Shown here: in pieces, positions 25,334-49,865 of the stretch
How the letters are laid out: every line of letters begins with the position of its first letter
Numbering within the stretch: the stretch's first letter is position 1
NCBI GenBank assembly: GCA_039794085.1
Contig: JBDIWC010000018.1
Span: 8,909 to 72,908 of the forward strand
Direction: 5' to 3'
From: Gemmatimonadales bacterium
GTDB lineage: Bacteria; Gemmatimonadota; Gemmatimonadetes; Gemmatimonadales; GWC2-71-9
Length of the DNA stretch: 64,000 nucleotides
Translations under genes and position numbers: made by a program
Notes under the pieces: generated by a model
Seen by the model: the letters and a program-made list of their open reading frames with translations, nothing else
Databases searched by the model: none
What the model was told of the DNA's origin: nothing

Positions 25334-25465
25334 GCCTAACGATCCTGTGCTGAGCGTCGAGTGCCTATTGGGTGGACGTTCGGGCGGCGCAAAGGAAACA
25401 ATCCAGACGCGCGCCCGGTCATTCCGCCATCCATCGCGCTCACGAACTCCAGCGCGTGGTAAGAC
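25334..25465 (-). mobile_element. Integron attC site ending the mrr cassette
   Basis: Minus strand GTCTTAC-CACGCG-CTGGAG ... CTCAG-CACAGGATC-GTTAGGC, 132 bp, starting 4 nt after the mrr stop. Confidence 0.8.
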
Positions 25466-25469
25466 CGCG

Positions 25470-26330
25470 TCACGACCGATACTCGTCAAAGAAAGTCTGA
25501 TTCACGTCGTATGTGGTACGCGGGTGGAGGCCGAGCTCCAGGTGCTCGAGGAGATCTACGAGTGCTTCGCCATCGACGAGTTCAATGGGCGGGACTCCGT
25601 CCCGCACTGCCTCACGTTTGGCATCCGCGGAGAACGACGCGGTTGTAAGAATGAGTCCCTTGTCGGTCCTCCCCATCATGGCGCCACGAAAGTCACGCAC
25701 GACTCCCGGCCCCACGGTGCTGGAGTATCTCTTGCACTGAAACAGAACCTTAAAGCTGACGAAGGGATTCAGCTGAAGTATCCCGATCCCATCGATACCG
25801 CCGTCGCCCGATTGTCCCGTGACTGTAACCTGCTCGAATCCAGCTTCCCTAAGGAGCCGCTGGCAAAGGCGCTCGAATCCGTTGGCCGGCAAACCCTGCA
25901 AGGTGGCCAGTACTCGGGTACGATAGTCGCCATCGGCTTCGTCCGGCGGTCGCTCTGCGGCCTGCCCAGCTTCGGCTTCGTCATCCGACCCACCCTTCCG
26001 GCCCCATTCCGCAATGACACCCCTGACCAGATGGTCGATCTCGGGGCCCGACAGACGATCGGTCGCACGCCCTTTCGCCGTGAGCGCCCAGACGCCACGT
26101 CGTGACGCATCGATATAGCCAGCCCGGACGAGATAATAGCGAGCCCATCCCACCTGATTGTCGAACCTGGATTGGCCGTTCTCAAGACGCTCCTCCAACA
26201 CGGCATCATCGACTTTCAGGTATTCGGCTACTGCTGCCCTGGTTTCCGAAGCTTTTGCGGACCCCCCAAGCTCGCGAAGGACTGCCAAGAGGGGATTGAT
26301 GTACTGGGCGAACTGAGATCCGATGGCCAT
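25470..26330 (-). CDS. mrr: Mrr-family type IV restriction endonuclease (Mrr_N + Mrr_cat), integron cassette
   Basis: FDNQVGWAR, SRRGVWALT, FERLCQRLL, DGGIDG, QCKRY, VRDFRGAM, IELVDG. Confidence 0.93.
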   Translation of the reverse strand: MAIGSQFAQYINPLLAVLRELGGSAKASETRAAVAEYLKVDDAVLEERLENGQSRFDNQVGWARYYLVRAGYIDASRRGVWALTAKGRATDRLSGPEIDHLVRGVIAEWGRKGGSDDEAEAGQAAERPPDEADGDYRTRVLATLQGLPANGFERLCQRLLREAGFEQVTVTGQSGDGGIDGIGILQLNPFVSFKVLFQCKRYSSTVGPGVVRDFRGAMMGRTDKGLILTTASFSADAKREAVRDGVPPIELVDGEALVDLLEHLELGLHPRTTYDVNQTFFDEYRS

Positions 26331-26354
26331 TCGATCCGATCGCTGTCTGACGCG

Positions 26355-26410
26355 GTCTAACTTGTTAATCGGTGGATGGGGACGTTACCACCGTCCAGAT
26401 ATGCCCGCAA
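26355..26410 (-). promoter_or_regulatory. Putative cassette promoter (TTGCGG-N17-TAACGT) and attI-like core GTTAGAC
   Basis: -35 at 26405-26410, -10 at 26382-26387, ACCGA, then GTTAGAC at 26355-26361. Confidence 0.7.
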
Positions 26411-26444
26411 GACAGGCCTCCGGTCCTTCCTCGGTGCCCGGAAC

Positions 26445-26519
26445 GTCCACCGGGCTTCGGACCACCAACCCACCCCGGTTGAGAACGGCGGTGGAGATCA
26501 GCGTGGTGCTCAGGTCGCT
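26445..26519 (-). pseudogene. intI: Integron integrase C-terminal remnant
   Basis: SDLSTTLISTAVLNRGGLVVRSPVD versus the IntI C-terminal pattern HxDVxTTMIYTHVLNRGgxgVxSPlD; catalytic Tyr position is TCC (Ser). Confidence 0.75.
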
Positions 26520-26756
26520 CCAAGCGATCACAGATCGCCTCAGAGGGTGCGCCGCAAGCAGCGCACCCACGGGTTGACACCGTCACCTTGTACGGGCCGT
26601 CTGCGAACCCCTCCCGCCCACCGCCCACCGCTGACCGCCTTTCGTTGCCACCTGGCGCTCGGGCGACGCGACCGCGTCGCCCCAAGGACGACGCATGCGT
26701 CGCCCCTACACCTACTCCCTATTCCCTACTCCCTACTCCCTTTACTTTCCCAACCC

Positions 26757-27236
26757 ATGCTCGATGCCATCATGACCTTCTTCCGGGGACACCTCGCCGG
26801 GCCCGACACCCCCACGGCCGACCCCGACGACCCCACTCGCCTGCGGCAGGCCGCCTGTGCCCTCCTGGTCGAGCTGGCCTGGGCCGACGGCGGCTTTTCC
26901 GACACCGAACGGAGTCAGCTCACCCGGTCCCTCGAAACCCGCATGGGGCTCGACCCCGACACCGCGTCCGAGCTCATCGCCCTCGCCGAGGCCGAACGGC
27001 ACACCGCGCACGATTACTACCAGTTCACCTCGCTCGTCGCCCAGCATTTCAGTGCCCGGGAAAAGCACCTCCTCCTCGAGGTGATGTGGGAACTGATCCT
27101 CGCCGACGGCACCATCAGCCGCGCCGAGGATCATCTGATTCGCCGGGTGGCTCCCCTGCTCGGCCTCGAGACCCGCAGCGTGGCCGACGCCAAGGCCCGT
27201 GTGCTCCAACGCACTCCATCCCCTCCGGGAGAATGA
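26757..27236 (+). CDS. TerB-family tellurite resistance-like protein
   Basis: AACALLVELAWADG, DYYQFTSLV, MWELILADG..SRAEDHLIRRVA.LLG. Confidence 0.85.
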   Translation: MLDAIMTFFRGHLAGPDTPTADPDDPTRLRQAACALLVELAWADGGFSDTERSQLTRSLETRMGLDPDTASELIALAEAERHTAHDYYQFTSLVAQHFSAREKHLLLEVMWELILADGTISRAEDHLIRRVAPLLGLETRSVADAKARVLQRTPSPPGE

Positions 27237-30200
27237 CCATGCTCCGTCCGCTCTTCGCCGTCTCCCTCCTGCTGTGCAGCACGACGGGACCGCTTGTGGC
27301 CCAGGATGAGGCGCCCGCCAGCCGGGGGGGACGAGCCCGGGAAAAGCCCCTCCCGCTGGAGGCGGCTCGATCGGCGCGCATCACCACCGATCAGGTCTCC
27401 TGGATGTCCCTCGACCTGAGCCCCGACGGCCAGACCCTCGTGTTCGACGCTCTCGGCGATCTCTACACCCTCCCCGTCACCGGTGACACCCCGACCCGCC
27501 TCACCTCCGGCCTCGCCTTCGACGGGCAGCCCCGGTTCAGCCCCGACGGAAAGCGGATCGTCTTCGTGTCCGACCGGAGCGGCGGGGACAATGTCTGGAT
27601 CATGTCCCTGGATGGCAAAGACACGGTGCAGGTCACCAAGGGGAACACCAACCAGTACCACTCCCCCGAGTGGACCCCCGATGGGGAATACATCGTCGTC
27701 TCCCGCTCCGGCCAGGGGGGTGCCAAGCTCTATCTCTACCATGCCACCGGCGGATCGGGCGCCCGGCTCGGCGGGCAACCCGACAATGCCCGCAGCATCG
27801 GCGCGGCCTTCGGGCCCGATCCCCGGTACATCTGGTATGCCACCCGTACCGGCGACCATACCTACAACGCCGTGCTCCCCACCTATCAGCTTGGGCTTTA
27901 CGACCGGGAAACCGGCACCCGCACCGCGATGACCTCGCGGCAGGGAGGGGGATTCCGGCCCGCGCTCTCGCCGGATGGGAAATGGCTCGCCTACGGAAGC
28001 CGCCACGACTCCAACACCGGTCTCCGGCTCCGCGATCTCGCCACCGGCGACGAACGGTGGCTCGCCTTTCCCATTCAGCGGGATGACATCGAGTCCCGTG
28101 CCACCCAGGATGCCCTCCCCGGCTACACCTTCACACCCGACAGCCGGACCGTGATCATGAGCTACCATGGGCAGATCTGGCGGGTGCCGGTGGACGGTGC
28201 CGCCGCGACGCGCATCCCGTTCACGCTGGAGACGGAGGTGGCGATCGGGCCCGAGGTCCGCTTCGACTATCCGGTGGAGGACAGCGCCCAGTTCACCGTG
28301 CGCCAGATCCGCGATGCCGTGCCCTCGCCCGATGGCCGCCGGCTCGCCTTCTCCGCGCTGGGCAAGCTCTACGTGATGGACTGGCCTGCCGGTACCCCGC
28401 GGCGGCTCACCACTCTCCCCTACGAGGAGCACTACCCGGCCTGGTCGCCCGATGGCCGGGAGATCGCCTTCGTGACCTGGGCCGATTCCTCGGGCGGGCA
28501 TCTCTACAAGGTGGCCTCCATCGGGAGTGCCCGTTCCACGCGACTCACCCGCACCGCGGGAGCATACGTCGAGACCGCGTGGTCGCCCGACGGCGCCCGG
28601 ATCGTGTCGATCAAGTCCCCGGCGCGGGAGATGCGCGAGGAGCTGCAGCGCTTCTCGCCGGGACAGGGGGCCGAGTTCGTGTGGGTCCCCGCGGCCGGTG
28701 GCGAGCTGACGGTGATTGCCCAGACCCGCGGTCGGCGGGTGCCACATTTTACAAGGGATTCCACCCGGCTCTGGGCCTACAGCGGAGGGGGCGGGCTGGT
28801 GTCGATGCGATGGGATGGCACCGATGTGAAGGAGCATCTCAAGGTGACCGGTCAGTCCCAGCCCGGGTCCACCCAGGCGCCCCCCGCCGCGCTGATCCGC
28901 ATGGCTCCCGTGGGTAATCAGGCGCTGGCTCAGGTCGGGATGGACATCTTTGTGGTGACGGTGCCGCTGGTCGGCGGGACGGTGCCGACGGTGTCGGTGG
29001 CCAACCCCGACAACGCGGCCTTCCCGGTGAAGAAGCTGACGGAGATCGGAGGCGAGTTCGCCCACTGGAGCGCCGACGGCCGGAAGGTGCACTGGTCGAT
29101 CGGGAACGCGCACCTGGTGTACGATCTCGACCGGGCGAAGGCGGTGGAGGACAGCGTGCGCGCCGCTCGGGCCACCCGCCCGGCCAACGACAGCACCGCC
29201 CGCCCGGCCAACGACACGACACGCGCCGGAGGGTACCAACCCGAGGAACGGCGCATCATCATCCGCGCGGCCCGCGACATTCCCCGCGGAACGGTCGTGC
29301 TCCGGGGAGGTCGGGCCATCACGATGCGGGGGCGGGAGATCATTGAGAACGCCGACATCGTCGTCACCGACAATCGGATCGTGGCGGTCGGAGCCCGCGG
29401 CCAGGTGACCATTCCCGCCGGCGCCCGGGAGATCGACGTGACCGGAAAGATCATCCTCCCCGGCTTCGTCGACACCCATTCCCACCTGCGGCACACGCCG
29501 GGCGTGCACAAGGATGCGCTCTGGGCGTATCTCGCCAACCTCGCCTATGGCGTCACCACCATGCGGGACCCCCAGACCGCCACCACCGACGTGCTCACCT
29601 ACGCCGACCGGGTGGACGCCGGTACCCTCCTCGGTCCCCGGGTCTACTCGACGGGCCCCGGCGTCTTTGCCGGCGAGAACATCGAGAGTCTCGACCACGC
29701 GCGGAACGTGCTCAAGCGCTACAGCCAATACTACGACACCAAGACGCTGAAGATGTACATGACGGGGAATCGCCAGCAGCGGCAATGGGTGATCATGGCG
29801 GCCCGCGAGCTCCAACTGATGCCCACCACCGAGGGGGGAATCGACTTCAAGCTGGAACTCACCCACGCGATGGACGGGTATGCGGGGCTGGAGCATTCGC
29901 TCCCCGTGGCCCCACTCTATCGCGACGTGGTGGAGCTGTTCAAGACGTCCAAGACGGCGTACACTCCGACCCTGCTCGTGTCGTACGGCGGGCCCTGGGC
30001 GGAGAACTACTACTATGCCACCGAGCAGCCGCACAATGATGCGAAGCTCCGGCGCTTCACTCCGGGGGACGAACTTGACGGGAAGACCCGCCGTCGCGGC
30101 GGGGGAACCTCCGCGGGGTGGTTCATGCCCGACGAGCATGTCTTCAACCGCCATGCCAACTTCGTGCGGGACCTGGTGGAAGTGGGGGGATGGGCCGGGG

Positions 30201-30562
30201 TCGGGAGCCACGGCCAGCTCCAGGGCTTGGGCTACCACTGGGAACTCTGGTCGGTGCAGTCCGGCGGAGCCACCCAATTCGACGCCCTTCGCATGGCCAC
30301 CATTCTCGGCGCCCAGGCACTCGGCTTCGGGAATGATCTGGGAAGTCTGGAACCGGGCAAGCTCGCCGACCTCCTGGTGCTCGACCGGGACCCAACCGAG
30401 AACATCCGGAACTCCAACTCGGTGCGGATGGTGATGAAGAATGGCCGCCTCTACGACGCGGACACCCTGAACCAGGTCTGGCCCACGGCGGTGCCCCTGC
30501 CGCCCCTCGGCTGGGGGCACGATGATCCGGATGTGAAGGCCGGGGTGGGCAGGCGGCCGTAG
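27233..30562 (+). CDS. Secreted PD40/TolB-repeat beta-propeller plus amidohydrolase fusion
   Basis: Repeated SPDG motifs, PGFVDTHSH, YGVTT, GSHGQLQG, GSLEPGKLADL. Confidence 0.92.
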   Translation: MTMLRPLFAVSLLLCSTTGPLVAQDEAPASRGGRAREKPLPLEAARSARITTDQVSWMSLDLSPDGQTLVFDALGDLYTLPVTGDTPTRLTSGLAFDGQPRFSPDGKRIVFVSDRSGGDNVWIMSLDGKDTVQVTKGNTNQYHSPEWTPDGEYIVVSRSGQGGAKLYLYHATGGSGARLGGQPDNARSIGAAFGPDPRYIWYATRTGDHTYNAVLPTYQLGLYDRETGTRTAMTSRQGGGFRPALSPDGKWLAYGSRHDSNTGLRLRDLATGDERWLAFPIQRDDIESRATQDALPGYTFTPDSRTVIMSYHGQIWRVPVDGAAATRIPFTLETEVAIGPEVRFDYPVEDSAQFTVRQIRDAVPSPDGRRLAFSALGKLYVMDWPAGTPRRLTTLPYEEHYPAWSPDGREIAFVTWADSSGGHLYKVASIGSARSTRLTRTAGAYVETAWSPDGARIVSIKSPAREMREELQRFSPGQGAEFVWVPAAGGELTVIAQTRGRRVPHFTRDSTRLWAYSGGGGLVSMRWDGTDVKEHLKVTGQSQPGSTQAPPAALIRMAPVGNQALAQVGMDIFVVTVPLVGGTVPTVSVANPDNAAFPVKKLTEIGGEFAHWSADGRKVHWSIGNAHLVYDLDRAKAVEDSVRAARATRPANDSTARPANDTTRAGGYQPEERRIIIRAARDIPRGTVVLRGGRAITMRGREIIENADIVVTDNRIVAVGARGQVTIPAGAREIDVTGKIILPGFVDTHSHLRHTPGVHKDALWAYLANLAYGVTTMRDPQTATTDVLTYADRVDAGTLLGPRVYSTGPGVFAGENIESLDHARNVLKRYSQYYDTKTLKMYMTGNRQQRQWVIMAARELQLMPTTEGGIDFKLELTHAMDGYAGLEHSLPVAPLYRDVVELFKTSKTAYTPTLLVSYGGPWAENYYYATEQPHNDAKLRRFTPGDELDGKTRRRGGGTSAGWFMPDEHVFNRHANFVRDLVEVGGWAGVGSHGQLQGLGYHWELWSVQSGGATQFDALRMATILGAQALGFGNDLGSLEPGKLADLLVLDRDPTENIRNSNSVRMVMKNGRLYDADTLNQVWPTAVPLPPLGWGHDDPDVKAGVGRRP

Positions 30563-30840
30563 TAGGGGCGGCCCGTGGCCGGGTGATCACCGGTCGTGAC
30601 AGTGCAGGAATAGGGAGTAGGGAGTAGGGAAGGGGAGAGGGGGCGTGGAAGGGATCGGAACGTCACCCCGGCGAACGCCGGGGTCCATCGTGCGGGAGGT
30701 CGGGAATGACACTGGATTCATGGCCGGAATGACGGCCTCCCCGTCGTCTGTCCTCTGTCCTCTGTCCTCTGTCCTGGGTGTCGGAGCGGCAGGCGAGAGG
30801 GGCCCGATACCAATCACCCATTACCCATCACCCATTACCC
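30562..30840. repeat. Intergenic cluster: GTAG REP, (GGGAGTA)n, CGTC-type palindrome, (TGTCCTC)n, (CCCATYA)n
   Basis: Elements at 30562, 30611, 30661, 30748 and 30818. Confidence 0.8.
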
Positions 30841-30850
30841 GAAACCCATC

Positions 30851-32764
30851 ATGACATCCCTCGGACGCAATCAGCCTTGTCCCTGCGGGTCAGGGAAGAA
30901 GTTCAAGAACTGTCACGGGCGGGAGGGGAATGCGAACCGGGGAGGGCTCTCCCTCATGCATGGGGGCGCAGCGTTGGACCGTCCGGGAGCTGACCGGAGC
31001 AGCATTCCCTCCCCTGACCCCGATTCCCGGTGGGAGGTGGACCTCCTGCCCGCCCCCATCTCCATCGGAACCGCTCCCCACTCACGCGTCGCCTGTGTGT
31101 TGGTGATGGGTGACGGATTCATCCTCTTCAGTGATTTTCTCACCGACCCGCCCAGCGAGTCGGACGACGTGGCCCGGGTGTTGATTGAGGCGGTGGAAAA
31201 GGCATCGACACGAGTGGGACGGTGGCCACGTACGATCGCGGTCCGCCGTGAGGTGATCGCCCGGGAGTTGCGGCCACTCCTCGGGGAGCGACACACGAGC
31301 GTGACCACCACGCGGTTGCCGGAGGTGGACGAGGCGGGCCGTTCGCTGATGGCACACATGAACCCCGGATCTCCGGAACGCCCCTTGGGGCTCTCCATTC
31401 CCGACAGGTGGGGGTCCTGGGGTCTTCCGACGGCGTTGGTGGGGGAATTGTTTGCCGCCTCCGCCGCGTTCTTTCGGGATCGGCCGTGGGAGCGTCTGGT
31501 CAATGCCGATCTCATGATGGCGACGACCCCGGGGGGAACCTCCTGGACCATGATCGTGCTGGGAGGAGCCGGCATGGAGTACGGCGTGGCGCTGTACGCC
31601 GATCTGGCGGACCTGGAGAGCCAGCTGACCACCGAGAGCGCGGATCCCGGATGGGAGGATGTCGTCCTCTCCCTCACCTTCCTGCGCCGGAGCGATGTGT
31701 CCCCCGCCATGCGCAAGGAGGTCCTCGCCGCCGGATGGGAGGTGGCCGGGACCGATGCGTGGCCCTTCCTCATCACGGCCAACACCCCGGGCGGCGGAAT
31801 CACCCGCGCCCAGGCAACCGACCTTCGGGACATCCTCCGCGCCCTGCCGGAGTTCTCCCGGTTTCTGGCGTCCGCCCGTGCCGAAGGAGCCGTCCCTCCC
31901 ATTGTCTGGACCGACCCGGAGATGGGGGTCTCCCTGGTGCTGGAATCGGACGGGGAGGAACCGTCTCTCTGGCCTCCCCCGGTGGCACTCGAACCGGCGC
32001 TCCCGACCGGATTGGGAGCCAACCCCGCCTCGGCGCTGCTGGTGCCGGAGGAAGGGACGTTGTCTCGGGATACGGAGGAACTCGTTGACCGATTCCAGGA
32101 GTCGCTCAGCCTCCGGTTTTCGGCGGCGACGGCGTTCCGCCATGCGGACAACGCCGATCTCTTTCTCACCTATCTGTCGGATGCGGCGGGGATTCCGGTC
32201 GAGGCGGTGACCGAATGCGACCTCATCATCTTTCTCTTCGACTGGGTGCATCGCACAGTGGTCTATCCCCCGGGAGAGATGCGGGCGATTCCCGTGTCCC
32301 TCAAACGCTTCTTCCATTTTCTGGAGACGGAACAGGAACTGCTGCTTCCCTGGGCGTGGAAGATCCTGGAGGATCGCGAGGCATTCGATATCCGGGCGGA
32401 GAGTTGCCCGGGCGGCGGGTTCGCTTTCCTGAACCCCGACCTGCAGGAATGGGTTGCGGACCTCGGAGTCGATTTGGCGGCGCGCGTCTTCCTGCCGAAT
32501 CCCGCCATGGCGGATGGCGGGGTCTGGGGCGAGATGATGGAAGTGGAGGAAGCCACCCTGTTCCACGAGCTGAGACGCCGGTGGTTGATCTGGCGGGACG
32601 AGGTCATCGCCTCGGGTGTCACCAGTCCGGGGGAGGTGCGGGAGGAACTGGCCCGGCGCCAGGCAGCGTGGGAGCGGTCGCCCCATCCGCGGCACAAGGG
32701 CAGGACCCCCCTCCAGGTCGTGCACCGCGAGCGAAAGAGGTTGGGTGGTGAAGACAGATGGTAG
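30851..32764 (+). CDS. SEC-C metal-binding domain protein
   Basis: GRNQPCPCGSGKKFKNCHG at N-terminus; remainder uncharacterised. Confidence 0.8.
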   Translation: MTSLGRNQPCPCGSGKKFKNCHGREGNANRGGLSLMHGGAALDRPGADRSSIPSPDPDSRWEVDLLPAPISIGTAPHSRVACVLVMGDGFILFSDFLTDPPSESDDVARVLIEAVEKASTRVGRWPRTIAVRREVIARELRPLLGERHTSVTTTRLPEVDEAGRSLMAHMNPGSPERPLGLSIPDRWGSWGLPTALVGELFAASAAFFRDRPWERLVNADLMMATTPGGTSWTMIVLGGAGMEYGVALYADLADLESQLTTESADPGWEDVVLSLTFLRRSDVSPAMRKEVLAAGWEVAGTDAWPFLITANTPGGGITRAQATDLRDILRALPEFSRFLASARAEGAVPPIVWTDPEMGVSLVLESDGEEPSLWPPPVALEPALPTGLGANPASALLVPEEGTLSRDTEELVDRFQESLSLRFSAATAFRHADNADLFLTYLSDAAGIPVEAVTECDLIIFLFDWVHRTVVYPPGEMRAIPVSLKRFFHFLETEQELLLPWAWKILEDREAFDIRAESCPGGGFAFLNPDLQEWVADLGVDLAARVFLPNPAMADGGVWGEMMEVEEATLFHELRRRWLIWRDEVIASGVTSPGEVREELARRQAAWERSPHPRHKGRTPLQVVHRERKRLGGEDRW

Positions 32765-32799
32765 GGGATAGGACTCCCTGCCCCGCCCCCCCCCGCGGG

Positions 32800-32888: not shown

Positions 32889-32893
32889 GGACC

Positions 32894-41682: not shown

Positions 41683-41692
41683 GGATTCGGCG

Positions 41693-42916
41693 ATGACCAG
41701 CTCCACCTACTTCCGCAAGGGCTTCGGCCTCAAGAGCGCCATCGAAGGCCAGCGCAGCGCTGACTATCACAGTGCGGTGGTCGAGGCGATCCGGGCGGGG
41801 GGGTACCGCCTCACGGTGGGACACCTCACCTTCCATCTTGCCCGGGAGTTCGGGTTCTGCTACGGGGTGGACCGGGCGGTGGACTACGCCTACGAGGCCC
41901 GGGCCCGCTTCCCCGACAAGCGGCTCTTTCTGGTCGGCGAGATCATCCACAACCCCCATGTGAACCGCAAGATGGAGGAGATGGGGATCGCCTTCCTGGC
42001 CCGCGGGGAGGAGGGCAGTTTCGATTTCAGCGAGGTCACCGCCGACGACGTGGTGATCCTCCCCGCCTTCGGGGTCACGATCCAGGACTTCAATCTTCTC
42101 CGGTCGGTGGGGTGTGTTCTGGTCGACACCACCTGCGGCTCGGTGCTCAACGTGTGGAAGCGGGTCGAGCGCTACGCGCGGGATGGCTACACCTCGATCA
42201 TCCACGGCAAGTGGTATCACGAGGAGACCCGCGCCACCGCCAGCCAGGTGTCGAAATATCCCGAAGGGCACTACCTCGTGGTGCGCAACATGGAGGAAAC
42301 CCGGCTGGTGTGCGACTACATCGAGCACGGAGGAGATGCCCCAGCCCTGGCCTCTCGATTCGTGAACGCCACCTCACCCGGCTTCGACTTCACCCGGCAC
42401 CTCGAGCGGGTCGGGCTGGCCAATCAGACCACGATGCTTTCGGGGGAGTCCCTCGCCATCGCCGAGGAGGTGCGGCTCGCGATGATCCGCCGGTACGGCG
42501 CCGACCAGGAGGGGGATCGGGTGCGGACCTTCGACACGATCTGTTCCGCCACCCAGGAGCGACAGGACGCGGTGGAGCAGCTCCTCCGGGAATCACCCCC
42601 GGATCTCATGTTCGTGGTGGGTGGCTACAACTCCAGCAACACCTGTCACCTCGCGGCCCTCTCGCAGAAGCTTGGCATCCGCACCTTCCATCTGGAGGAC
42701 GCCGCCTGCGTGGACCTCACCACCGGTGCCATTCGCCATCAGCCGGTGGGCGCCACCGCCGAGGAGGTCACCGCCGACTGGCTGGGTGAGGCCCGGGTGC
42801 TCGGCATCACAGCCGGGGCGTCCACCCCCAACAACAAGGTCGGGGAAACGGTGATACGGATCGCCGCGGTGGCGGGGCTGGACCTGGACTCTCTCATCTC
42901 CCTGGGGGAGGGCTGA
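41693..42916 (+). CDS. ispH: 4-hydroxy-3-methylbut-2-enyl diphosphate reductase
   Basis: FGFCYGVDRA, EIIHNP, DTTC, HEET, NQTT, DTICSATQERQ, GGYNSSNT, TAGASTP. Confidence 0.96.
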   Translation: MTSSTYFRKGFGLKSAIEGQRSADYHSAVVEAIRAGGYRLTVGHLTFHLAREFGFCYGVDRAVDYAYEARARFPDKRLFLVGEIIHNPHVNRKMEEMGIAFLARGEEGSFDFSEVTADDVVILPAFGVTIQDFNLLRSVGCVLVDTTCGSVLNVWKRVERYARDGYTSIIHGKWYHEETRATASQVSKYPEGHYLVVRNMEETRLVCDYIEHGGDAPALASRFVNATSPGFDFTRHLERVGLANQTTMLSGESLAIAEEVRLAMIRRYGADQEGDRVRTFDTICSATQERQDAVEQLLRESPPDLMFVVGGYNSSNTCHLAALSQKLGIRTFHLEDAACVDLTTGAIRHQPVGATAEEVTADWLGEARVLGITAGASTPNNKVGETVIRIAAVAGLDLDSLISLGEG

Positions 42917-42958
42917 TCCGGCTCGACCCCACGGAGCGAGGTTTGGATGCTCTCAGGG

Positions 42959-42985
42959 CGTCACCCCGGCGGACGCCGGGGTCCA
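42959..42985 (+). repeat. CGTC-type REP palindrome CGTCACCCCGGCGGACGCCGGGGTCCA
   Basis: Further copies at 30661, 43851, 44641 (degenerate), 49965 and 55188 (reverse). Confidence 0.85.
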
Positions 42986-43032
42986 TTCGCTTCAATCCTC
43001 ACCCGTGGAAAGGTGTCCCCGCGAAGCGGGAA

Positions 43033-43132
43033 GCGACCTTCAGTATCGTGGCGAACTCCGGATTGCCATCCGGCGAGAGGGCCTTGGGGAGGCTCCCGTC
43101 CCAGTCCGCTCTTCCGGGCGATCTCCGTGTCG
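43033..43132 (-). pseudogene. Fragment of an addiction-module antidote (HI1420-like HTH)
   Basis: TEIARKSGLGRE / (frameshift) LPKALSPDGNPEFATILKVA. Confidence 0.7.
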
Positions 43133-43186
43133 ATGATCCAGGTACACGAAGGGCTGGAGGAGGAAAACAGATTCCGGCGCACGCCG

Positions 43187-43756
43187 TCAGTCTGCCGGGC
43201 GCAGAATCGACGGGTCCCCGGGCCGCAACTCGGTACAGGCGTCGGACTCTACCGTCCACATCGCGTTGGACACGCGCCATCGTCCGTCGATCTTGACGAA
43301 GTCGAACACATCGACACCGCAATGGGTTGTCTCGCCGTCGACCCAGAACTCATACGGCGCCCACACCACGGCGATGCCACCACGGATCATCACGGTCGGC
43401 GACCAGTACCGCTCCCGAAGGACGCGCCCATCGTCCCGGGAGGGATCTGTCCAAAAGGAGTTCGGGCGTGCCACGATCTCCATCCCGCCGCCTTCGGCCG
43501 GGCGCCAGATGCCGCTCTGGGAGTCCACCTCGAAAACCGGGCGCCACACGTAGGTCATTCCGTCCGGGGTCATCATCGCCGCCTGGGCTTCGCGATCGGA
43601 CTCGGAGATCGCCGTGACGTAGCGGTCCAGTGCCTCGAGAACGGCCGCCTCCTCGCCCGGTTGGTGCCCTTCGGCGATGTGCGGCGTGGGGGGAGCGGAG
43701 GCTCCGCAGGCGGACAGGAAGGTCATCATTGCGATCAGGAACATGCTTCGCGTCAT
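43187..43756 (-). CDS. NTF2-like lipoprotein
   Basis: Lipobox LSAC; IAVVWAPYEFWVDGETTHCGVDVFDFVKIDGRWRV. Confidence 0.8.
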   Translation of the reverse strand: MTRSMFLIAMMTFLSACGASAPPTPHIAEGHQPGEEAAVLEALDRYVTAISESDREAQAAMMTPDGMTYVWRPVFEVDSQSGIWRPAEGGGMEIVARPNSFWTDPSRDDGRVLRERYWSPTVMIRGGIAVVWAPYEFWVDGETTHCGVDVFDFVKIDGRWRVSNAMWTVESDACTELRPGDPSILRPAD

Positions 43757-43961
43757 GTCATCCTCCTGGGTATCACAAGGGTGTCCTCGCTCGCCTGACG
43801 TCTCGCCATTCTGCTGCGCACACGTGTCGTGACCCACGATCTCCTTCAGGCGTCACCCCGGCGGACGCCGGGGTCCATCCCCGTCAATTTCAATTTCAAT
43901 TCAATCCTCGCCCCGGCGAGGTGTGGACCCCGGCCAAGTGGGAACCAGGGGCATTATCTCG

Positions 43962-44333
43962 CTAGCGAGCGTCACTCTCCCGTCTTGGAGATAACGGATC
44001 CCGCGTCAGGACGAGAAGGGCGGATTCGGTGTTCGCTGCGAATGAAGACACTTCCTCCACTTTCGCGCGCAAGACAACCTCGACGTCAGCTGTCCGGCAA
44101 TTCCCCAGGCGCACCCAGATCACTTTGGGTGGGGATCCGCGAAGGAAGCTGAACTGGCGAAAGTCATCATCCTTCGTGACGATCATGAATTCTCCCGTTC
44201 GGGCGTACTGCCACACGAGTTCGTCGTCACCCACGGCAAGTCCGAGATCGCGCACGTGCGCGGAGTCCGGATACAGGTCGCCCAGTCGACGGACGAGCGT
44301 CGGCGAGAGATTTTGATCGAAGAGGAGCTTCAG
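43962..44333 (-). CDS. DUF5615 PIN-like toxin (CTG start)
   Basis: (M)KLLFDQNLSP...SAHVRDLGL, IVTKDDDF, PPKVIWVRLGN. Confidence 0.85.
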   Translation of the reverse strand: MKLLFDQNLSPTLVRRLGDLYPDSAHVRDLGLAVGDDELVWQYARTGEFMIVTKDDDFRQFSFLRGSPPKVIWVRLGNCRTADVEVVLRAKVEEVSSFAANTESALLVLTRDPLSPRRESDAR

Positions 44334-44354
44334 GTTGGGCCGCCTTGAGCCTCG

Positions 44355-44579
44355 TTACGCCGCCGGACCCACGAGTCGTCGCTCACGGTCCGCAGCAAAG
44401 GCAAGCGCCGCGTGTATGTCCTCGCGCTCCAGATCCGGGAAGTCGGCCAGGATCTCGTCCGTGCTCATGCCTCCGGCCAGGTAGTCGAGAATGTCATACA
44501 CCGTGATACGCAGGCCACGGATGCAAGGCTTGCCGCTGCGCTTGCCAGGTTCGATGGTGATCCGGTCGCGGTAGTCCAT
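44355..44579 (-). CDS. DUF433 antitoxin
   Basis: ITIEPGKRSGKPCIRGLRITVYDILDYLAGGMS..EILADFPDL. Confidence 0.92.
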   Translation of the reverse strand: MDYRDRITIEPGKRSGKPCIRGLRITVYDILDYLAGGMSTDEILADFPDLEREDIHAALAFAADRERRLVGPAA

Positions 44580-44779
44580 ACTTTCAGCATAGTCTCTGAA
44601 GGGGTGAGCCGCAAGCTGCCGGCTCCGAGACCCCCTGGGTGTCACCCCCGCGCACGCCGCCGGAGTCCATTCCCTTCAATCCTCACCCGAGGAAAAGGTG
44701 TCCCCGCAAAGCGAGGTGTGGCTCGGATGCTCTCCGGGCGTCCCCCCTGCCAAGCTTGTCCCTGGAAAGGCGGGGAGAG

Positions 44780-45925
44780 TTAACGGCCGATCCGCCCGCG
44801 CACGATGTATGGGATACCGTCCCGGTCGCGTGCTGCCAGCCATACCACGTTATCCCGAGTGACCGGACGCACCCAGGAGATGATCGCATGCGGGATGCGC
44901 ACTTCGGCGATCGCCTCGCCGCCGGCCGAATAGATCTCGAAGAGAGAGGTTTCGTCGGCGGTGCCGCGCCGGACCCAGAGACGAGTGTCATCATCGACGA
45001 AGGCGCTCTGGATCACCGGTTTGACGGTCGGGATCCGGCTCCAGTCCGGGTCCGGTTCGTTCAGGGACGCCAGGAACTTGCGTATGCCTGCGATCGCGGA
45101 ATCGCGTTCCGCCGGGGTGACGGGGAAGGGGGTGGTCCCGCGGTGGATGCGCGCCCCCGTATCGTGCTGCTCGATGCCGAGCTTGAACAGCCGGTACTCG
45201 GCCCCGGTCGGCGCGCACCAGACGGCGCCGCTGGTCCAGTCGAAGGCGAGGACAGGTCCCGGATAGAAGGGAATATTCACGGAGTACCGGGCTCCACCGC
45301 GGCCACCTTCCAGGGGCTTCCAGTAGCTGCCGTCTCCGGTTGTCCACCCAGGAGGCCGGCACGCGGGGAGCGAGACCGTATCGATACGGCTCCAGTCCGG
45401 CTCTGCTCGCCGAAGGGTGCGTTTCGGCTCGTCGCCCTCTATGCGCCCGAAGACCTCGTCCCAGATTCGGCCGGTCCGGTCTATTCCTCCGGTCCAGACC
45501 CAGCCATAACCCTGGGCTGGAGCGATCTGCTGCGTGAGGAAGTCGCCCGTCTCGCTGAAAAGGGAGAATCGGCCGTTTTGCGGATCATGCACCCAGACCA
45601 CACCATCGGGCGCCAAAGCCATCCCGTCAGGCCAGAGAAACTCTCCGGGTCCCTGACCTCGCCGTCCGATTGTGCGCAGCGGTTTTCCGAGAGAGTCAAA
45701 CACCCGAATGTTCTGGGTCGAAGCCTCCAGCGCCCAGATGTTGCCGCTCCGCGTGACGAGAACCCCTTTGAGATCGCTGAGTCCGTCGGGATCGTCTGCG
45801 CCGCCCCCAATTCGGAAGTCCTCGACGAAGTGCCACTCCCCAAGGACAGCCGGGTCCGCAGGGGAGGTGCAGGCGGGGAAGGTGGCGAGGATCGAAAGCA
45901 GTGCCAACTTGTTCGTGGTGGCCAT
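44780..45925 (-). CDS. 6-bladed beta-propeller (NHL-like) lipoprotein
   Basis: Signal ending in PAC, IRVFDSLGKPLRTIGRRGQGPGEF. Confidence 0.82.
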   Translation of the reverse strand: MATTNKLALLSILATFPACTSPADPAVLGEWHFVEDFRIGGGADDPDGLSDLKGVLVTRSGNIWALEASTQNIRVFDSLGKPLRTIGRRGQGPGEFLWPDGMALAPDGVVWVHDPQNGRFSLFSETGDFLTQQIAPAQGYGWVWTGGIDRTGRIWDEVFGRIEGDEPKRTLRRAEPDWSRIDTVSLPACRPPGWTTGDGSYWKPLEGGRGGARYSVNIPFYPGPVLAFDWTSGAVWCAPTGAEYRLFKLGIEQHDTGARIHRGTTPFPVTPAERDSAIAGIRKFLASLNEPDPDWSRIPTVKPVIQSAFVDDDTRLWVRRGTADETSLFEIYSAGGEAIAEVRIPHAIISWVRPVTRDNVVWLAARDRDGIPYIVRGRIGR

Positions 45926-45999
45926 GGAACCTGCTGGATTTGGGGTTCCGCCAGTGCAGAGGGGTAGCCAAAGGATGGTCCCCTCAGGGGCACAACCGA

Positions 46000-46063
46000 A
46001 CACCTCGGTGCCCACTATTCTGCAGGTCGATCACACCTTCCGCAAGATTACCCGGAACAGTGC
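46000..46063 (-). promoter_or_regulatory. Third copy of the cassette promoter module (TTGCGG-N17-CAGAAT-N7-ACCGA)
   Basis: GCACTGTTCCGGGTAATCTTGCGG aligns with GCAGTGTTCTGGGATTACCTTGCGG at 49716-49740. Confidence 0.6.
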
Positions 46064-46121
46064 CCGAACTCCGCCACCACCCTGCGCGTCTCTCCAGCCC
46101 ATCCCCCCGGACTCCGGGCTC

Positions 46122-46565
46122 TCAATCCCCTCGCTCGGTCGCTGCGCGATGCCAACGCTCCACGCGCAGGCCGTGAAAGGGCTCGAAGTCTCGAACGTTG
46201 TCCGTGACCAGGATGAGGCCATTGACCGCGGCGACAGCGGCGATCTGGCCGTCGGCGAACGCGGGTGTCTGTCCGGCCTTGGTGAGCCGGGCGCGCTGCG
46301 CAGCATGCCATTCCGCAGCGACCGCGTCATAAGGCAGGATCGGGAGTGCAGCGGAGACGACCTCGGCCAGGTATCGCTCAATCGCCGCGCGCTTTCGAGA
46401 GGGGCGGAGCAGCCCGACGCCGAAAGCCAGCTCGTGCCAGACGATGGAGGCTGTGGCGAGTTCACCGCCGCGCTCCCGCAGCTTGTTGACGACCGCCTCG
46501 TCCGGCTCCTTGCGCACCGGCTCGGAGAGGACATTGGTGTCGACCAAATAGCGAGGCGTCACCAC
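46122..46565 (-). CDS. vapC: VapC PIN-domain toxin
   Basis: YLVDTNVLSE, HELAFG, FADGQIAAVA, LVTDNVRDF. Confidence 0.92.
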   Translation of the reverse strand: MVTPRYLVDTNVLSEPVRKEPDEAVVNKLRERGGELATASIVWHELAFGVGLLRPSRKRAAIERYLAEVVSAALPILPYDAVAAEWHAAQRARLTKAGQTPAFADGQIAAVAAVNGLILVTDNVRDFEPFHGLRVERWHRAATERGD

Positions 46566-46840
46566 CGAGGTTCCCGCCCGGTCCCGCGGTCACGCAGATT
46601 CTCAAGCTCACCCTGATCGAGCTGAATCTCAGGCATCTCCACCTGCTCGAGGAGGGCGTCAAGCGCCACCCCGAATGAAGGGCGCCCGTGCGCCAACTGC
46701 TGGTAGCGCGCCGCCGAGACCAGGACTGCCACGGGTGTCCCCCACCGCGTGATCTGGACGGCCGCGCCCTCCTCGGCTTCCTTCACCAGACCGGGTAGCC
46801 TTGCCCGAGCTTCGGCGATCGATACGCTATGTTCCGCCAT
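46559..46840 (-). CDS. Phd/YefM-family antitoxin
   Basis: SIAEARARLPGLVKEAEEG..VQITRWGTPVAVLVS; GGAGG RBS. Confidence 0.9.
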   Translation of the reverse strand: MAEHSVSIAEARARLPGLVKEAEEGAAVQITRWGTPVAVLVSAARYQQLAHGRPSFGVALDALLEQVEMPEIQLDQGELENLRDRGTGREPRW

Positions 46841-46849
46841 GTTACCTCC

Positions 46850-46869
46850 ATGTACATCTTTATGTACAT
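46850..46869. promoter_or_regulatory. TA autoregulatory operator ATGTACAT-CTTT-ATGTACAT
   Basis: Two palindromic TGTACA cores directly upstream of the antitoxin RBS. Confidence 0.75.
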
Positions 46870-46967
46870 AGAATAGCATTACCGGTGCTCACGCGCAAGT
46901 CCTCGGATCCGCTTCCGGGCGGTAATGCCCTCCGGGCAGGGGTTCAGGACGCCTATCGCGTCCAGCC

Positions 46968-47070
46968 ACATAACGTCTCGCGTTTCGGTGGCGCGACAAG
47001 GGTGTCCCCCGAGCGCCGCCGGCGCGAGCCCACTCGCTCAGATCGCGGCAACAGCACACGCATGTTGGGC
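46968..47070 (-). mobile_element. Integron attC site (degenerate)
   Basis: Minus strand GCCCAAC-ATGCGT ... ACGCGAGAC-GTTATGT, 103 bp, about 30 nt after a stop codon. Confidence 0.7.
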
Positions 47071-47099
47071 AGCACCGTTGTCGGGAATCGAGCGAACGG

Positions 47100-47400
47100 T
47101 CAATGACCGCCACGTCGTGGGATGTAGCTCCCGTTCTCATCGAATGGCTGCGCATCACGGTGGAACCTGATCTGGCGCCACCACTCGCGTCTCGTCGCAG
47201 CACGGTCGTGAAGCGGACGGAGACTCGCTCCGGCTCCTCGCCTTTCAGCTGGAACTCTCCGGTGAAGAAGCCCCAGGCAAGCCCCACTCCGATGTCCACG
47301 GATGACTCAATCTCATCAATCGTGATTCGGTAGTACTCGACAGCAGCCAGAAAGCGGTTGATGATCTTCAGCTCCTCGGCTCTCGACTGAAACGCCCGAT
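47100..47400 (-). pseudogene. 5'-truncated, frameshifted NTF2/SnoaL-like cassette gene
   Basis: ...GLAWGFFTGEFQLKG...VRFTTVLRRDASG / WRQIRFHRDAQPFDENG; no start codon. Confidence 0.55.
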
Positions 47401-47419
47401 GAGGCTTGGTCCGCTGCCA

Positions 47420-47600
47420 CCACGGTGGCGGCGACCGCCCCGCTGGGGCGCGCGGCGTACAGCGCCTGTTGGGCAGCGCTCATCCGTGCAACATCTTCGG
47501 GCGTGGCGGTCACGTCGCTCAGATAGGCAAGGCAGCCGAGCAGATTCCAAAGGAGGGCCACGATGGTAACCGGCAGGTACCACCGCGGCACTGTCTCCAC
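47420..47600 (-). pseudogene. 3'-truncated membrane protein gene
   Basis: AAGGAG RBS, PRWYLPVTIVALLWNLLGCLAYL...QQALYAARP, then runs into unrelated sequence. Confidence 0.5.
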
Positions 47601-47721
47601 AGCCCACTCCTTCGTTCCGGTGATGGCACCCGAGCCGCTCCACTCCGCCGATCGCAGCACCGCTCATCGAGCGCAACCCCCGAACGGGCGTGAACCATTC
47701 GATTGCCCCACACGATCTCCA

Positions 47722-48459
47722 TCAGCGTCCTCGAATGAGAAACAACAGCCCTGCCGCCGTCATCGTCAACTCGATGAGGAACACGAACACATGTTCCGGA
47801 AGCCGATCGACGATCCGCTTCCCTGTCCAAGACCCGACAATCATTAGTGGACCGATTGCGAGACCCGCAAGAATGCTCTCCATCGGGAGCACGGCCGCGC
47901 CGCGGTAGGCGACAAGCTTCGTAACGTGCATCACGACTGTGGAGAGCGCCTCGGTGCCGATATATGCACACTTCACCAACCCGTAGGCGAGGAAGAACGG
48001 TGCCATGAGCGGTCCCACGCTTCCCAACAGCGCCGAGAGGAAGCTTCCGCCGGCCCCGATGAGCGCGAATGATCGCAGGGTGGGTCGTACGGTCGTTCGG
48101 GGTCCCAGCCTCCGCCAAGCCACGATGAGCAAGAGAAAAAGGCCAAGCAGGCGCGTCAGACCCTCAAGTGGTGCCCGTGCAAAGAGCAGACCGCCAAGCA
48201 GTGCCAGGGGAACGCCGCCCACTGCAAACCAGCCCACCACTCGATAGTCAAGCTCGTGCCGGTTGAACCATACGCGGCTGGCGTTACCGGTGAGTTGCGC
48301 GACTGTCAGTATCGGCACCGCGTCGCGTACGCCGAAGGCGATGACAAGCACGGGGAGCAGCACGACCGCCTCACCGAAGCCTGTCACTGCGGCGAGCGTG
48401 GACGCAAGCAGGGCAACGGCGCCGACAAGTAGTGAAGCTCCGAGGTCAATATGCGGCAT
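47722..48459 (-). CDS. Sulfite exporter TauE/SafE family membrane protein, integron cassette
   Basis: AVTGFG, GSVGPL, many TM segments; ATG lies inside the GTTATGC core. Confidence 0.85.
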   Translation of the reverse strand: MPHIDLGASLLVGAVALLASTLAAVTGFGEAVVLLPVLVIAFGVRDAVPILTVAQLTGNASRVWFNRHELDYRVVGWFAVGGVPLALLGGLLFARAPLEGLTRLLGLFLLLIVAWRRLGPRTTVRPTLRSFALIGAGGSFLSALLGSVGPLMAPFFLAYGLVKCAYIGTEALSTVVMHVTKLVAYRGAAVLPMESILAGLAIGPLMIVGSWTGKRIVDRLPEHVFVFLIELTMTAAGLLFLIRGR

Positions 48460-48531
48460 AACCGCGTATGAGTTCAGCGGCAACACAGGCGCGAATGCGC
48501 CTGTGTTGTCATCTGCAATGAGGGGTTAGGC
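48456..48531 (-). mobile_element. Integron attC site
   Basis: Minus strand GCCTAAC-CCCTCA-TTGCAG-ATGACAACACAGGCGC...GCGCCTGTGTTGCCG-CTGAA-CTCATACGCG-GTTATGC, 76 bp. Confidence 0.9.
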
Positions 48532-48579
48532 GGTCAGTCACGAATGCAGGTGGGAAGAAGAGTTGGCCACATGCTCGTG

Positions 48580-49026
48580 TCACACACCAAACTGTACGAG
48601 GTGGTGGTCGAGGTGCTTCCAGCAAAGCTGCCCCCACTCCTGCGGTGAGAGCGGGCCGAAGGTGGGGTGTACAGCACTGGCGGTGCCGCGGCCGACGCGC
48701 TCAGTGAGTTCAATGCACGCCGAGAGGTCGGCGTCCCAATCCGTTGGTTGCGAGACCAGCATCTCCGGTGCGGTCATGATCTTGCCACGAGGAGGCCTGA
48801 TGCCCGTGTTGACCACGAGGAACTTGAGGAAGGTGCGTGAAGCCAGCGTGTGAGCCGGTGCTGTCGGAACGTCGCCCAGCGCAACGCGCAGTTGATCCGC
48901 GACGTGGCAGAGCATGCGTGGTGCGTTGAGGGTGCCCCACGCCGCCTGTGCGTCAGGAGTGAGACGTCGCAGTCGCTCGAGGATGAGTGCGCGGTCTTCT
49001 TCTGCCAACAGGGTGCGGAGTGCCAC
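48580..49026 (-). CDS. DinB-like / DUF1569 family protein, integron cassette
   Basis: WGTLNAPRMLCHV, HPTFGPLSPQEWG...KHLDHHLVQFGV. Confidence 0.88.
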   Translation of the reverse strand: MALRTLLAEEDRALILERLRRLTPDAQAAWGTLNAPRMLCHVADQLRVALGDVPTAPAHTLASRTFLKFLVVNTGIRPPRGKIMTAPEMLVSQPTDWDADLSACIELTERVGRGTASAVHPTFGPLSPQEWGQLCWKHLDHHLVQFGV

Positions 49027-49042
49027 GAGGTTCTCCCTGGAC

Positions 49043-49102
49043 GCCTAGCTTTCCGATTCATCGGCGGCGCGTAGCGTCGTCCGCTGCAACAGGTTGTTAG
49101 CT
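49043..49102 (-). mobile_element. Integron attC site (60-bp, classic short type)
   Basis: Minus strand AGCTAAC-AACCTG-TTGCAGCGGACGACGCTACGCGCCGCCGATGAA-TCGGAAA-GCTAGGC. Confidence 0.88.
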
Positions 49103-49113
49103 GGCCGTTCCCT

Positions 49114-49596
49114 TCATTTGCCGGCCACGACGATATCAGCCTTAGTCGAACCAACGATGTCAAGAAGCTCCTGAGTCTCCTTCGCTGGGACGCGATGCTT
49201 CGCGAGCACCTCTTTGAAGATGGTCACCATCCGCTCCCACTCCCGTTCCGCGATGTTCAAGTGGGTGTGAGCCTCCTTCATCCCGCGACCCTGGTACTGG
49301 CAAGGGCCGCCAGTGGCTTGGCACACCATGGCCGTCACGTGGTACTTCAGATAGGGCGCTGGCACACGCTTCCTCGTGGCATCGATCGCAGGATTCGCAT
49401 TGAGGACGGCGTCCGGCACAAGGGCATCGATAAAATCGCTCACCACGACCGAAAGCGGCGCAAGGCCACCAAGCCGGTCGTAGAGGGATTGCTGTTTCTG
49501 CCCTGGCTGGCCCTGCGCGAGTGCCGAGTGGAACCCTCCTACCACAAGGGCGACGACTACAAGACCCATCCAGGGTTTCGTGCTGCGCGTGAACAT
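49114..49596 (-). CDS. Group 1 truncated haemoglobin with signal peptide, integron cassette
   Basis: SLYDRLGG, CQATGGPCQYQGRGMKEAHTHLNI; AGGAGG RBS. Confidence 0.9.
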   Translation of the reverse strand: MFTRSTKPWMGLVVVALVVGGFHSALAQGQPGQKQQSLYDRLGGLAPLSVVVSDFIDALVPDAVLNANPAIDATRKRVPAPYLKYHVTAMVCQATGGPCQYQGRGMKEAHTHLNIAEREWERMVTIFKEVLAKHRVPAKETQELLDIVGSTKADIVVAGK

Positions 49597-49666
49597 AGTT
49601 GACCTCCTTCTGCCTGTCGGGGGTGTGTCGCCCCCCGTGGCTTCGTTGTCACGTGGCCCCGCCGCA

Positions 49667-49721
49667 GGCCAGCTGAGTTATCGGTTTCAAGTATACTGCA
49701 CCAGAATTGCGCCATCCGCAA
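49667..49721 (-). promoter_or_regulatory. Putative cassette promoter (TTGCGG-N17-CAGTAT, overlapping TATACT) and degenerate attI-like core
   Basis: ACCGA motif, then CTCAGCTGGCC, which mirrors GGCCAGCTAAC at the end of the globin cassette. Confidence 0.65.
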
Positions 49722-49769
49722 GGTAATCCCAGAACACTGCGGGGGGGGCATGATCCCCCGGAACCTTCA

Positions 49770-49865
49770 TCACATACCCCCCAGAGCGTCTGCAGGGCTC
49801 CGAACCCCCCGGCCCCCCCGGTTCAGCACGTGCGTGTAGATCATCGTGGTCCGGACATCCGAGTA
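49770..49865 (-). pseudogene. intI: Integron integrase C-terminal remnant
   Basis: YSDVRTTMIYTHVLNRGGRGVRSPADALGGM*; upstream sequence is unrelated to integrases. Confidence 0.9.

Follow-up and report, generated by a model that had tools for sequence, protein, structure and literature searches.

How do integron cassettes come to stand behind an attI site and a promoter when the integrase gene is gone? The question is raised by a stretch of 64,000 nucleotides (nt), hereafter the window, from a Gemmatimonadales bacterium (assembly GCA_039794085.1, contig JBDIWC010000018.1; G000:C18:8909-72908 in our numbering, where G000 is the genome under study and C plus a number is a contig). An earlier note had reported there two minus-strand tails of intI, the gene encoding an integron integrase, each followed by a promoter-like motif, an attI-like core and attC-delimited genes, and had proposed a small element that spreads as a unit and is served in trans by an integrase (IntI) encoded elsewhere. 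Both tails are present, the one of locus B (49862-49770) with 30 codons and the stop and the one of locus A (26519-26438) as a decayed version, and both belong, as the note had it, to integrase-less promoter and attI platforms of co-oriented integrons. The unit considered here is the module, i.e., a predicted cassette promoter and attI, with or without an IntI tail. The modules are probably the surviving attI sites and predicted promoters of several reverse integrons, in which intI is transcribed toward attI and the cassettes, and whose integrase genes suffered breakage or deletion, for the most part in place; they likely still express their cassettes, and intact docks would likely be reloaded given a compatible IntI.

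Loci A, B and C and their counterparts in relatives

The G000 assembly comprises 4.16 Mb with 66.8% guanine plus cytosine and is 94.7% complete; it was compared with G001, a congener assembled independently, against which the orthology of the A, C, C33a, B and C22 loci was judged, and with the further relatives G002, G033 and G061. As shown in Table 1, the modules fall into four lineages, named T1-T4. At locus B (T2), matches to window positions 50661-53796 and 49678-49875 flank the intact intI of G001:C149; since a full-length intI occupies the same chromosomal position in G001, B decayed in place, and the claim of a mobile stump rather than a decayed gene fails for it. The B tail is identical to this full-length gene at 80 of 84 nt, and B clusters with the G001:C149 integrase (support 0.98). 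The G001 loci orthologous to B and C22 both hold intact integrases, scoring 447 and 444 bits against TIGR02249 (cut-off 265), and these two (T2 and T3) occur in G001 beside stumps and tail-less modules. The cassettes at the two B sites differ, with globin, DUF1569, TauE and Phd/PIN genes in G000 and a methylase-EcoRI-family pair at G001:C149, and the entire B-C region is absent from G002. No contig among those listed spans the B junction with 31 letters on each side; contigs of runs X1-X3 cover the flank but not the 5' part of the G001 T2 intI, a gap that proves nothing.

Locus A (T1) clusters with the full-length integrases of G002 and G033 (support 0.97), and A and B, 59% identical, represent different integron lineages. 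Compared with the ortholog G001:C230, the tail of A has drifted (65 of 82 nt identical), while the promoter block is kept at 28 of 29 nt; because the left junction is common to both, the deletion is older than the split of G000 and G001. Upstream of A, a stretch reading WVR that resembled debris of the intI N-terminus is a palindromic repeat without a profile match and was rejected. The third module that had been noticed near 46000 is present and additionally keeps a few IntI-tail codons; this module C is nested at the end of the B array, and it is found in G001 too. As for the genes said to be delimited by attC behind both tails, the B array has three attC without a neighbouring intI and, by the covariance model built here, falls under the definition of a cluster of attC sites lacking an integrase (CALIN, at least two attC); A heads a single cassette with one weak attC and no array, and since it has only one attC it would count as a single-attC element. 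The Phd/PIN pair of the B array has an 87% identical counterpart at G001:C8:587-1400, adjoining the flank of the G000 C8 locus, a different integron locus.

In relatives, intI, a -35/17/-10 motif, attI and the cassettes follow in this order on one strand, and deletions within intI spare the promoter and attI because both lie 3' of intI on the same strand. Full-length intI above the TIGR02249 cut-off occurs in 70 of 131 family genomes. The orientation set consisted of 104 loci, 6 of them without a full-length gene, and is biased to IntI; orientation was scored at the 98 loci with full-length IntI, where attC lie downstream on the strand of intI at 33 and upstream on the opposite strand at 13, with 52 undetermined, and in kin genomes all 12 determinable loci are co-oriented. 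The orientation label changes once on a quick IntI tree (Shimodaira-Hasegawa-like approximate likelihood ratio test, SH-aLRT, 89; a count as low was reached in 0 of 500 shuffles), on whose co-oriented side lies a contig titled Treponema denticola, its own orientation undetermined. On this tree, integrases of the kin are interspersed with rows titled Gemmatimonadota, which would place the host in that phylum. With 33 of the 46 loci that could be determined, this sample, biased to IntI as it is, suggests that reverse integrons are common in little-studied phyla. Co-oriented integrons were seen in records titled Acidobacteriota, Coriobacteriia, Eisenbacteria, Elusimicrobiota, Nitrospirota, Myxococcota, Cyanobium and Gemmatimonadota, and Proteobacteria supply most of the divergent ones. 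The spread of the reverse layout may go far beyond the few species that the papers cited below name.

Promoters, att sites and integrase remnants

Modules were located by DNA profiles of the region 3' of the intI stop, which gave 20 modules of four lineages on 10 contigs and at 11 loci of G000, so the expectation of further copies was borne out; 13 of the 20 are profile seeds and 7 are new (E 7e-21 to 0.048), and two weaker T2-like matches (C33:15563 and C55) were excluded. In the window, the pattern TTGCGG-N17-YANNNT-N6..9-ACCGA matches three times (26369-26410, 46005-46045 and 49681-49721) against 0.01 expected, three being reached in 0 of 100 shuffles, which agrees with the three copies described earlier; because the pattern was derived from these same sites, the count shows their likeness and not their function. 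Promoters were placed by per-lineage anchors that fix parts of the spacer and the -10 box, an automatic picker having misplaced several modules, so that -10 conservation among anchored modules is circular. The -35 column, unconstrained in the search, reads TTGC in 18 of 18 T1/T2 modules, and the -35/-10 spacing peaks at 17 genome-wide.

The attI assignment draws on the alignment of paralogues on the core: in all four lineages (23 modules, G000-G002), identity is 0.71-0.94 in the 10 nt before the core and 0.23-0.29 from +7 to +16; within T1 it is 0.84 over the 10 nt preceding the core and 0.29 from +7. Since the similarity of paralogues ends at G|TT, each module took a different cassette there, and the site is a true attI. 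The GTT core is retained in 11 of the 20 modules, including A (G|TTAGAC) and C (G|TTCGGT); B, to which the earlier note had likewise ascribed a GTTRRRY-like core, reads C|TCAGCT, and its attI is predicted from this sequence to be closed to new cassettes. The cargo behind the modules comprises Mrr, TIR, FRG, HigBA, ParE, DUF433/DUF5615, DUF4160 and DUF2442 proteins and many toxin-antitoxin pairs; in a set of 39 cargo proteins, apart from 14, many have no assigned family.

For attC, 24 sites of other genomes served to build a covariance model, which ranked the four minus-strand array sites first among 9 window matches at E<=5, in line with the expectation that these sites would score. In folding compared with shuffles, the site at 48456-48531 alone is better (z -4.6), the other three giving z -1.3, -0.6 and 0.0, and the attC at 25334-25465 showed no folding excess over shuffles. 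An attC matrix trained on 39 attC from genomes other than G000 (score threshold 26) found 12 genome matches at or above 26 and none in the reversed genome; 10 of the 12 fall in the zone reaching 5 kb downstream from modules, which makes up 0.9% of the genome. A strict attC pattern gave 7 matches against 1 in shuffles, and a loose heuristic was discarded with its 802 mostly false candidates. In the genome-wide covariance search, 150 of 3255 candidates were scored and at least 9 matched, the window sites not being among these.

The integrase remnants differ widely. No intact intI was found in G000, where TIGR02249 matches 19 pieces, the best of which, at C22, has a deletion of about 73 nt and a frameshift and is the ortholog of G001:C154. 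The tails of A and B both start at position 303 of the 330 positions of the IntI model, so the cut at one codon that had been remarked on is correct for this pair; it does not extend to the genome, as the left edges of all nine tail-bearing G000 copies lie at codons 97, 198, 234, 236, 246, 278, 295, 303 and 303. There are also modules with almost no tail, the edges running to past the stop, and many modules keep less than 40 nt; to judge from the sequences, the tail is therefore dispensable for the modules. Six N-terminal intI remnants were found (E<=0.0014; C22, C14 with two, C8 with two, and C11), and whole intI genes therefore formerly stood at C22, C14, C8 and C11. Such varied breakpoints and N-terminal debris are what the earlier note itself had named as speaking against its proposal. 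The middle of intI is joined to the left arm of an attC at C11 and C14b. A microhomology between N-terminal ELG..EV and C-terminal ELLGH.DV fits, by eye, the G002:C14 junction alone and was not adopted.

The same heterogeneity is seen in the family. A 32-residue tail model matches in at least 86 of 131 genomes, with two or more matches in at least 24 and most, at least 8, in G000. Of 69 broken or partial copies, 60 could be scored for their left edge (profile match and at least 600 nt upstream); 9 start at or before codon 60, 8 at 61-199, 9 at 200-270, 8 at 271-292, 23 at 293-308 and 3 beyond. An N-terminal piece followed by a gap occurs in 15 of the 60, two of these 15 being near-full genes. 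The copies at 293-308 look like independent deletions because their flanking sequence differs, and since the protein model misses tails of less than about 15 codons, this cluster may partly be a detection edge. A proteobacterial family served as control, chosen by way of a locus scored as divergent; the tail model matches in 83 of its 131 genomes, 16 of them with two or more matches, so several intI per genome are not peculiar to the co-oriented layout; matches starting at position 4 or later number 14 of 126 in kin (without G000) versus 3 of 105 in the control (Fisher p 0.02, the kin not being independent), and 3'-only remnants are thus somewhat commoner in the kin.

Origin of the modules and known integrons

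The following course would account for these observations. Whole reverse integrons would have been gained or duplicated; at least four lineages are present in G000, and several of these formerly had full-length copies at two or more sites. Independent events, namely frameshifts and deletions within intI or at its 5' side, eroded the costly gene to varied lengths, down to none. Selection would maintain the promoter and not the tail, and platforms with an intact GTT core would accept cassettes whenever a compatible IntI is in the cell, as presumably in G001. The suggested service in trans is plausible, since integrase-free modules with a common junction hold different cassettes and G001 has two intact IntI beside stumps; the full-length intI that it calls for was not found in the G000 assembly. 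Because the assembly has no intact intI, the G000 arrays are likely frozen with decaying att sites, and the decayed cores of B, attC 49043-49102 and attC 25334-25465 suggest little recent activity. Several points weigh against erosion in place. The cluster of edges at codons 293-308 exceeds what random erosion fully explains, and the modules at C2, C29, C38, C45 and C33 have no upstream intI debris, those at C29 and C38 being absent from G001. The stumps of G061 on C57 and C178 show a shared upstream sequence that is not intI, which means that copying of a platform is possible once it has been truncated. Since the G000 assembly is incomplete, it could lack an intact intI that the genome has; the seed modules entered their own profiles, the 7 new ones include a weak one (C22b, E 0.048), and the cassette promoter is a prediction from the conserved -35/17/-10 motif.

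It is possible, though rather doubtful, that the promoter-attI dock is a separable unit multiplied by IntI and by local duplication, so that one resident or passing integrase would feed about 20 expressed capture sites as a distributed integron; if so, many 'CALINs' and lone cassettes in these phyla would be active satellites and not debris. In an unlikely alternative, IntI itself moves promoter-attI units, as cassettes that carry a promoter and end in attI: excision would join attI with an attC or a secondary site upstream, and reinsertion elsewhere would build a distributed network of docks served in trans. Some modules indeed lie directly behind attC, at about 15 nt from the attC core for module C in G001, about 30 nt for C8c and about 10 nt for a T1 module of G002, and in the available portions of the sources IntI1 excises attI-ORF-attI and attC-ORF-delta-attI units, with ORF for open reading frame (PMC12901181), and IntI inserts at non-att genomic sites (10.1101/2022.09.11.507474). 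In addition, C33a, C33c and G001:C131a have one upstream junction and no intI tail, and C33c and G001:C131a diverge at the core into different cassette-type cores and genes, a pattern repeated by the G061 pair; the Phd/PIN pair and a DUF2442 cassette stand at different platforms in G000 and G001. Shared junctions with different cassettes fit a scenario in which IntI acted once intI had been lost locally, but an exchange of cassettes at the core would equally result if paralogous modules underwent homologous recombination. Moreover, a common left boundary is absent, no GTT was seen at the left junctions inspected by eye, the attC arm within intI at C11 and C14b fits tandem duplication and deletion, and B, C22 and the T4 copies of C8 and C14 were formerly whole integrons on site.

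The proposal of one short non-autonomous element, cut at one codon and spreading as a unit, could draw on the common start of A and B, the family cluster at 293-308 and the excess of late-starting matches in kin; it is very improbable, as A and B group with different full-length integrases and B is orthologous to a full intI, which refutes it for this pair, the flanks differ, and module tails range from about 230 codons to none. Nor are fixed ends and a single origin, as in a miniature inverted-repeat transposable element (MITE), found here, given four lineages with differing left edges and flanks. Local tandem duplication is visible at C8 (where a flank fragment is repeated ahead of a module), C14, C33 and C38, and direct repeats of flank of about 100-400 nt were seen by eye at C38 and C8. 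Repeat-mediated mobilisation was rejected, as high-copy repeats are not enriched: a repeat lies at most 300 nt away from 5 of 21 platform edges, and from 32% of the 691 intergenic starts taken as control. That the modules are ordinary host promoters, chance matches or breaks of assembly is hardly credible. It is true that 25 of 36 genome matches to TTGCGG-17-TANNNT lie outside modules, that some non-integron genes use the motif and that contigs of metagenome-assembled genomes break at repeats; however, homology stops at G|TT, attCs cluster behind modules, IntI tails precede them, and the A, C, C33a, B and C22 loci have orthologs in the independently assembled congener.

Decay in place is the reading with which known systems are compared. 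On this reading the modules represent known integron decay in a variant form and do not constitute a new kind of jumping element. Integrons mobilised by MITE or insertion sequences (IS) exist, and like these some modules adjoin high-copy repeats; unlike these, they show no repeat enrichment. In the portions of the literature available to us, to which all statements on cited papers are limited, reverse (inverted-integrase) integrons are described from Treponema denticola, from Chlorobium phaeobacteroides and from Blastopirellula marina (PMC3607928, 10.1101/427781, PMC4889954), with an integrase group called paraphyletic (PMC4889954). The present loci resemble them in that intI points toward attI and the cassettes, and on the quick tree the kin integrases lie on the side that holds the contig titled T. 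denticola; unlike those, described as one per genome, 20 modules of four lineages stand here at 11 loci, none with an intact intI. It has been reported that about one third of intI are pseudogenes and 20% of hosts have several (PMC2426708), that 15 of 279 CALINs adjoin an intI pseudogene (PMC4889954) and that active IntI1 is costly and becomes inactivated during serial transfer (PMC3510236). Like CALINs and intI pseudogenes, including those of Xanthomonas (10.1101/2025.06.18.660453), the arrays hold attC-delimited cassettes with no working integrase nearby, have lost intI to frameshifts or deletions and may be mobilised in trans; unlike CALINs, they retain an attI and a predicted promoter of their own, often together with a 3' piece of intI so short that the usual detection of pseudogenes would miss it, and many have only one recognisable attC. 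Similarly, class 2 integrons with inactive IntI2 and delta-attI cassettes show attI without a working cognate integrase, attI inside arrays and, for the former, attI used by another IntI (PMC12901181); delta-attI cassettes are attI fragments of 11-238 nt on mobile integrons, whereas here whole chromosomal promoter and attI units are found, whose mobility is hypothetical.

Reverse integrons, intI pseudogenes, multiple intI per genome and CALINs are thus in print (PMC4889954, PMC2426708, PMC8618304, 10.1101/2025.06.18.660453, 10.1101/2022.02.06.479319). No published account of many dispersed promoter-attI docks of reverse integrons was found in a search outside which most subscription journals lay, and the supplements of PMC4889954 and PMC2426708 may list cases. 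The modules offer a concrete route from integron to CALIN that keeps attI and the predicted promoter, an origin that has been proposed while its traces were rarely found (PMC4889954). In the co-oriented layout, a new cassette behind any surviving dock would take the best-expressed first position, and in place of one long silent array there could be many short ones; restriction, TIR and toxin-antitoxin genes abound in the cargo. The results suggest that integron finders miss these docks, and the congener pair combines intact T2 and T3 integrases in G001 with orphan attI sites in both genomes.

Features of the window and additional observations

Table 1. Integron-related features of the window (coordinates in the window) and module lineages in G000.
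Feature	Position	Strand	Evidence or remark
Last 30 intI codons and stop, locus B, T2	49770..49862	-	TIGR02249 positions 289-315, E 2.5e-9
Sequence in place of 5' 90% of G001 intI: 148-aa ORF (50150-50596) without Pfam match, and high-copy repeat	49863..50660	-	
Predicted cassette promoter of B, TTGCGG-17-CAGTAT	49693..49721	-	28/29 nt identical to G001:C149
attI of B, decayed core C|TCAGCT (G|TTAGGC in G001 ortholog)	49671..49692	-	core position 49677
Cassette gene, bacterial globin	49114..49596	-	Pfam Bac_globin E 3.6e-10
attC, core changed to GCT	49043..49102	-	covariance model E 0.037
Cassette gene, DUF1569	48580..49026	-	Pfam
Intact attC	48456..48531	-	28.8 bits, E 3e-5; bottom-strand fold z -4.6
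Cassette gene, TauE/SafE family exporter	47722..48486	-	Pfam
attC	46968..47070	-	18.2 bits, E 0.017
Phd antitoxin and PIN toxin pair	46122..46879	-	Pfam
Module C: few IntI-tail codons, predicted promoter TTGCGG-17-CAGAAT (46045-46017), attI core G|TTCGGT (46001)	45995..46116	-	
ORF behind module C, beta-propeller protein, common to G001	44780..46015	-	
Decayed intI 3' tail, locus A, T1, from model codon 303	26438..26519	-	tail model E 2.9e-9
Predicted cassette promoter of A, TTGCGG-17-TAACGT	26382..26410	-	28/29 nt identical to G001 ortholog
attI simple site of A, crossover G|TTAGAC at 26361	26355..26375	-	drop in identity among T1 modules
First cassette gene at A, Mrr-family restriction endonuclease	25470..26330	-	Pfam Mrr_cat E 2e-30, Mrr_N E 1e-22
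Weak, decayed attC ending Mrr cassette, R'' AAC changed	25334..25465	-	covariance model 13.6 bits, E 0.26
T1 modules	window A, C2, C29		
T2 modules	window B, window C, C38, four on C33		
T3 modules	three on C8, one on C22		
T4 modules	two on C14, C11, C8, C45, second on C22		

In the window, high-copy tandem repeats of the REP (repetitive extragenic palindromic)-like and heptamer kinds lie at 26600-26740, 49950-50000, 50660-50690 and 43850-43900, and 20-mers occurring at least 8 times make up 1.6% of the genome. At 44560-44612, TTGCGG-17-TATGCT stands 6 bases upstream of the ATG of a DUF433/DUF5615 pair and is likely a leaderless host-type promoter and not an integron module; similar -10 boxes occur 6-8 nt ahead of several intI start codons in kin, and GTT-like words directly before intI starts, considered as cassette-style left ends, were set aside as equally readable as leaderless -10 boxes.

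Elsewhere in G000, C33:9200-15600 carries four to five T2 promoter modules 1-3 kb apart without an intI tail, each followed by a toxin-antitoxin or cassette-type gene, with no attC detected. Two attC-like sites, at C37:5423-5534 and C59:14738-14855, have no module nearby, and mid-gene intI fragments without a promoter-attI module lie at C5:83635-83731 and C8:2277-2329, the latter in the place where G001:C64 has a T3 stump with cassettes. A second, strongly decayed IntI tail is found at C22:55300-55715, directly upstream of the near-full-length intI, and is preceded by a transposase fragment, which we take from its motif to resemble RAYT/TnpA. At C11:26300-40300, a single T4 intI lies in three overlapping pieces across 14 kb with IS-like sequence between them, a block absent in G001.

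In relatives, a restriction-modification pair forms the first cassette behind each of the two intact G001 integrases, the pairs being of the EcoRI and Bpu10I families (L110:6143-8017 and L115:1533-3651). At G002:C210 (L119:2950-3700), the intI stop and the promoter-attI module are separated by a toxin-antitoxin cassette and its attC, both junctions reading G|ATAGGC; the cassette was apparently inserted at a secondary site upstream of attI. On the small contigs G073:C678 and G113:C728, the stumps are nearly identical and have their upstream sequence, which is not intI, in common; this points to a shared element or to binning overlap.

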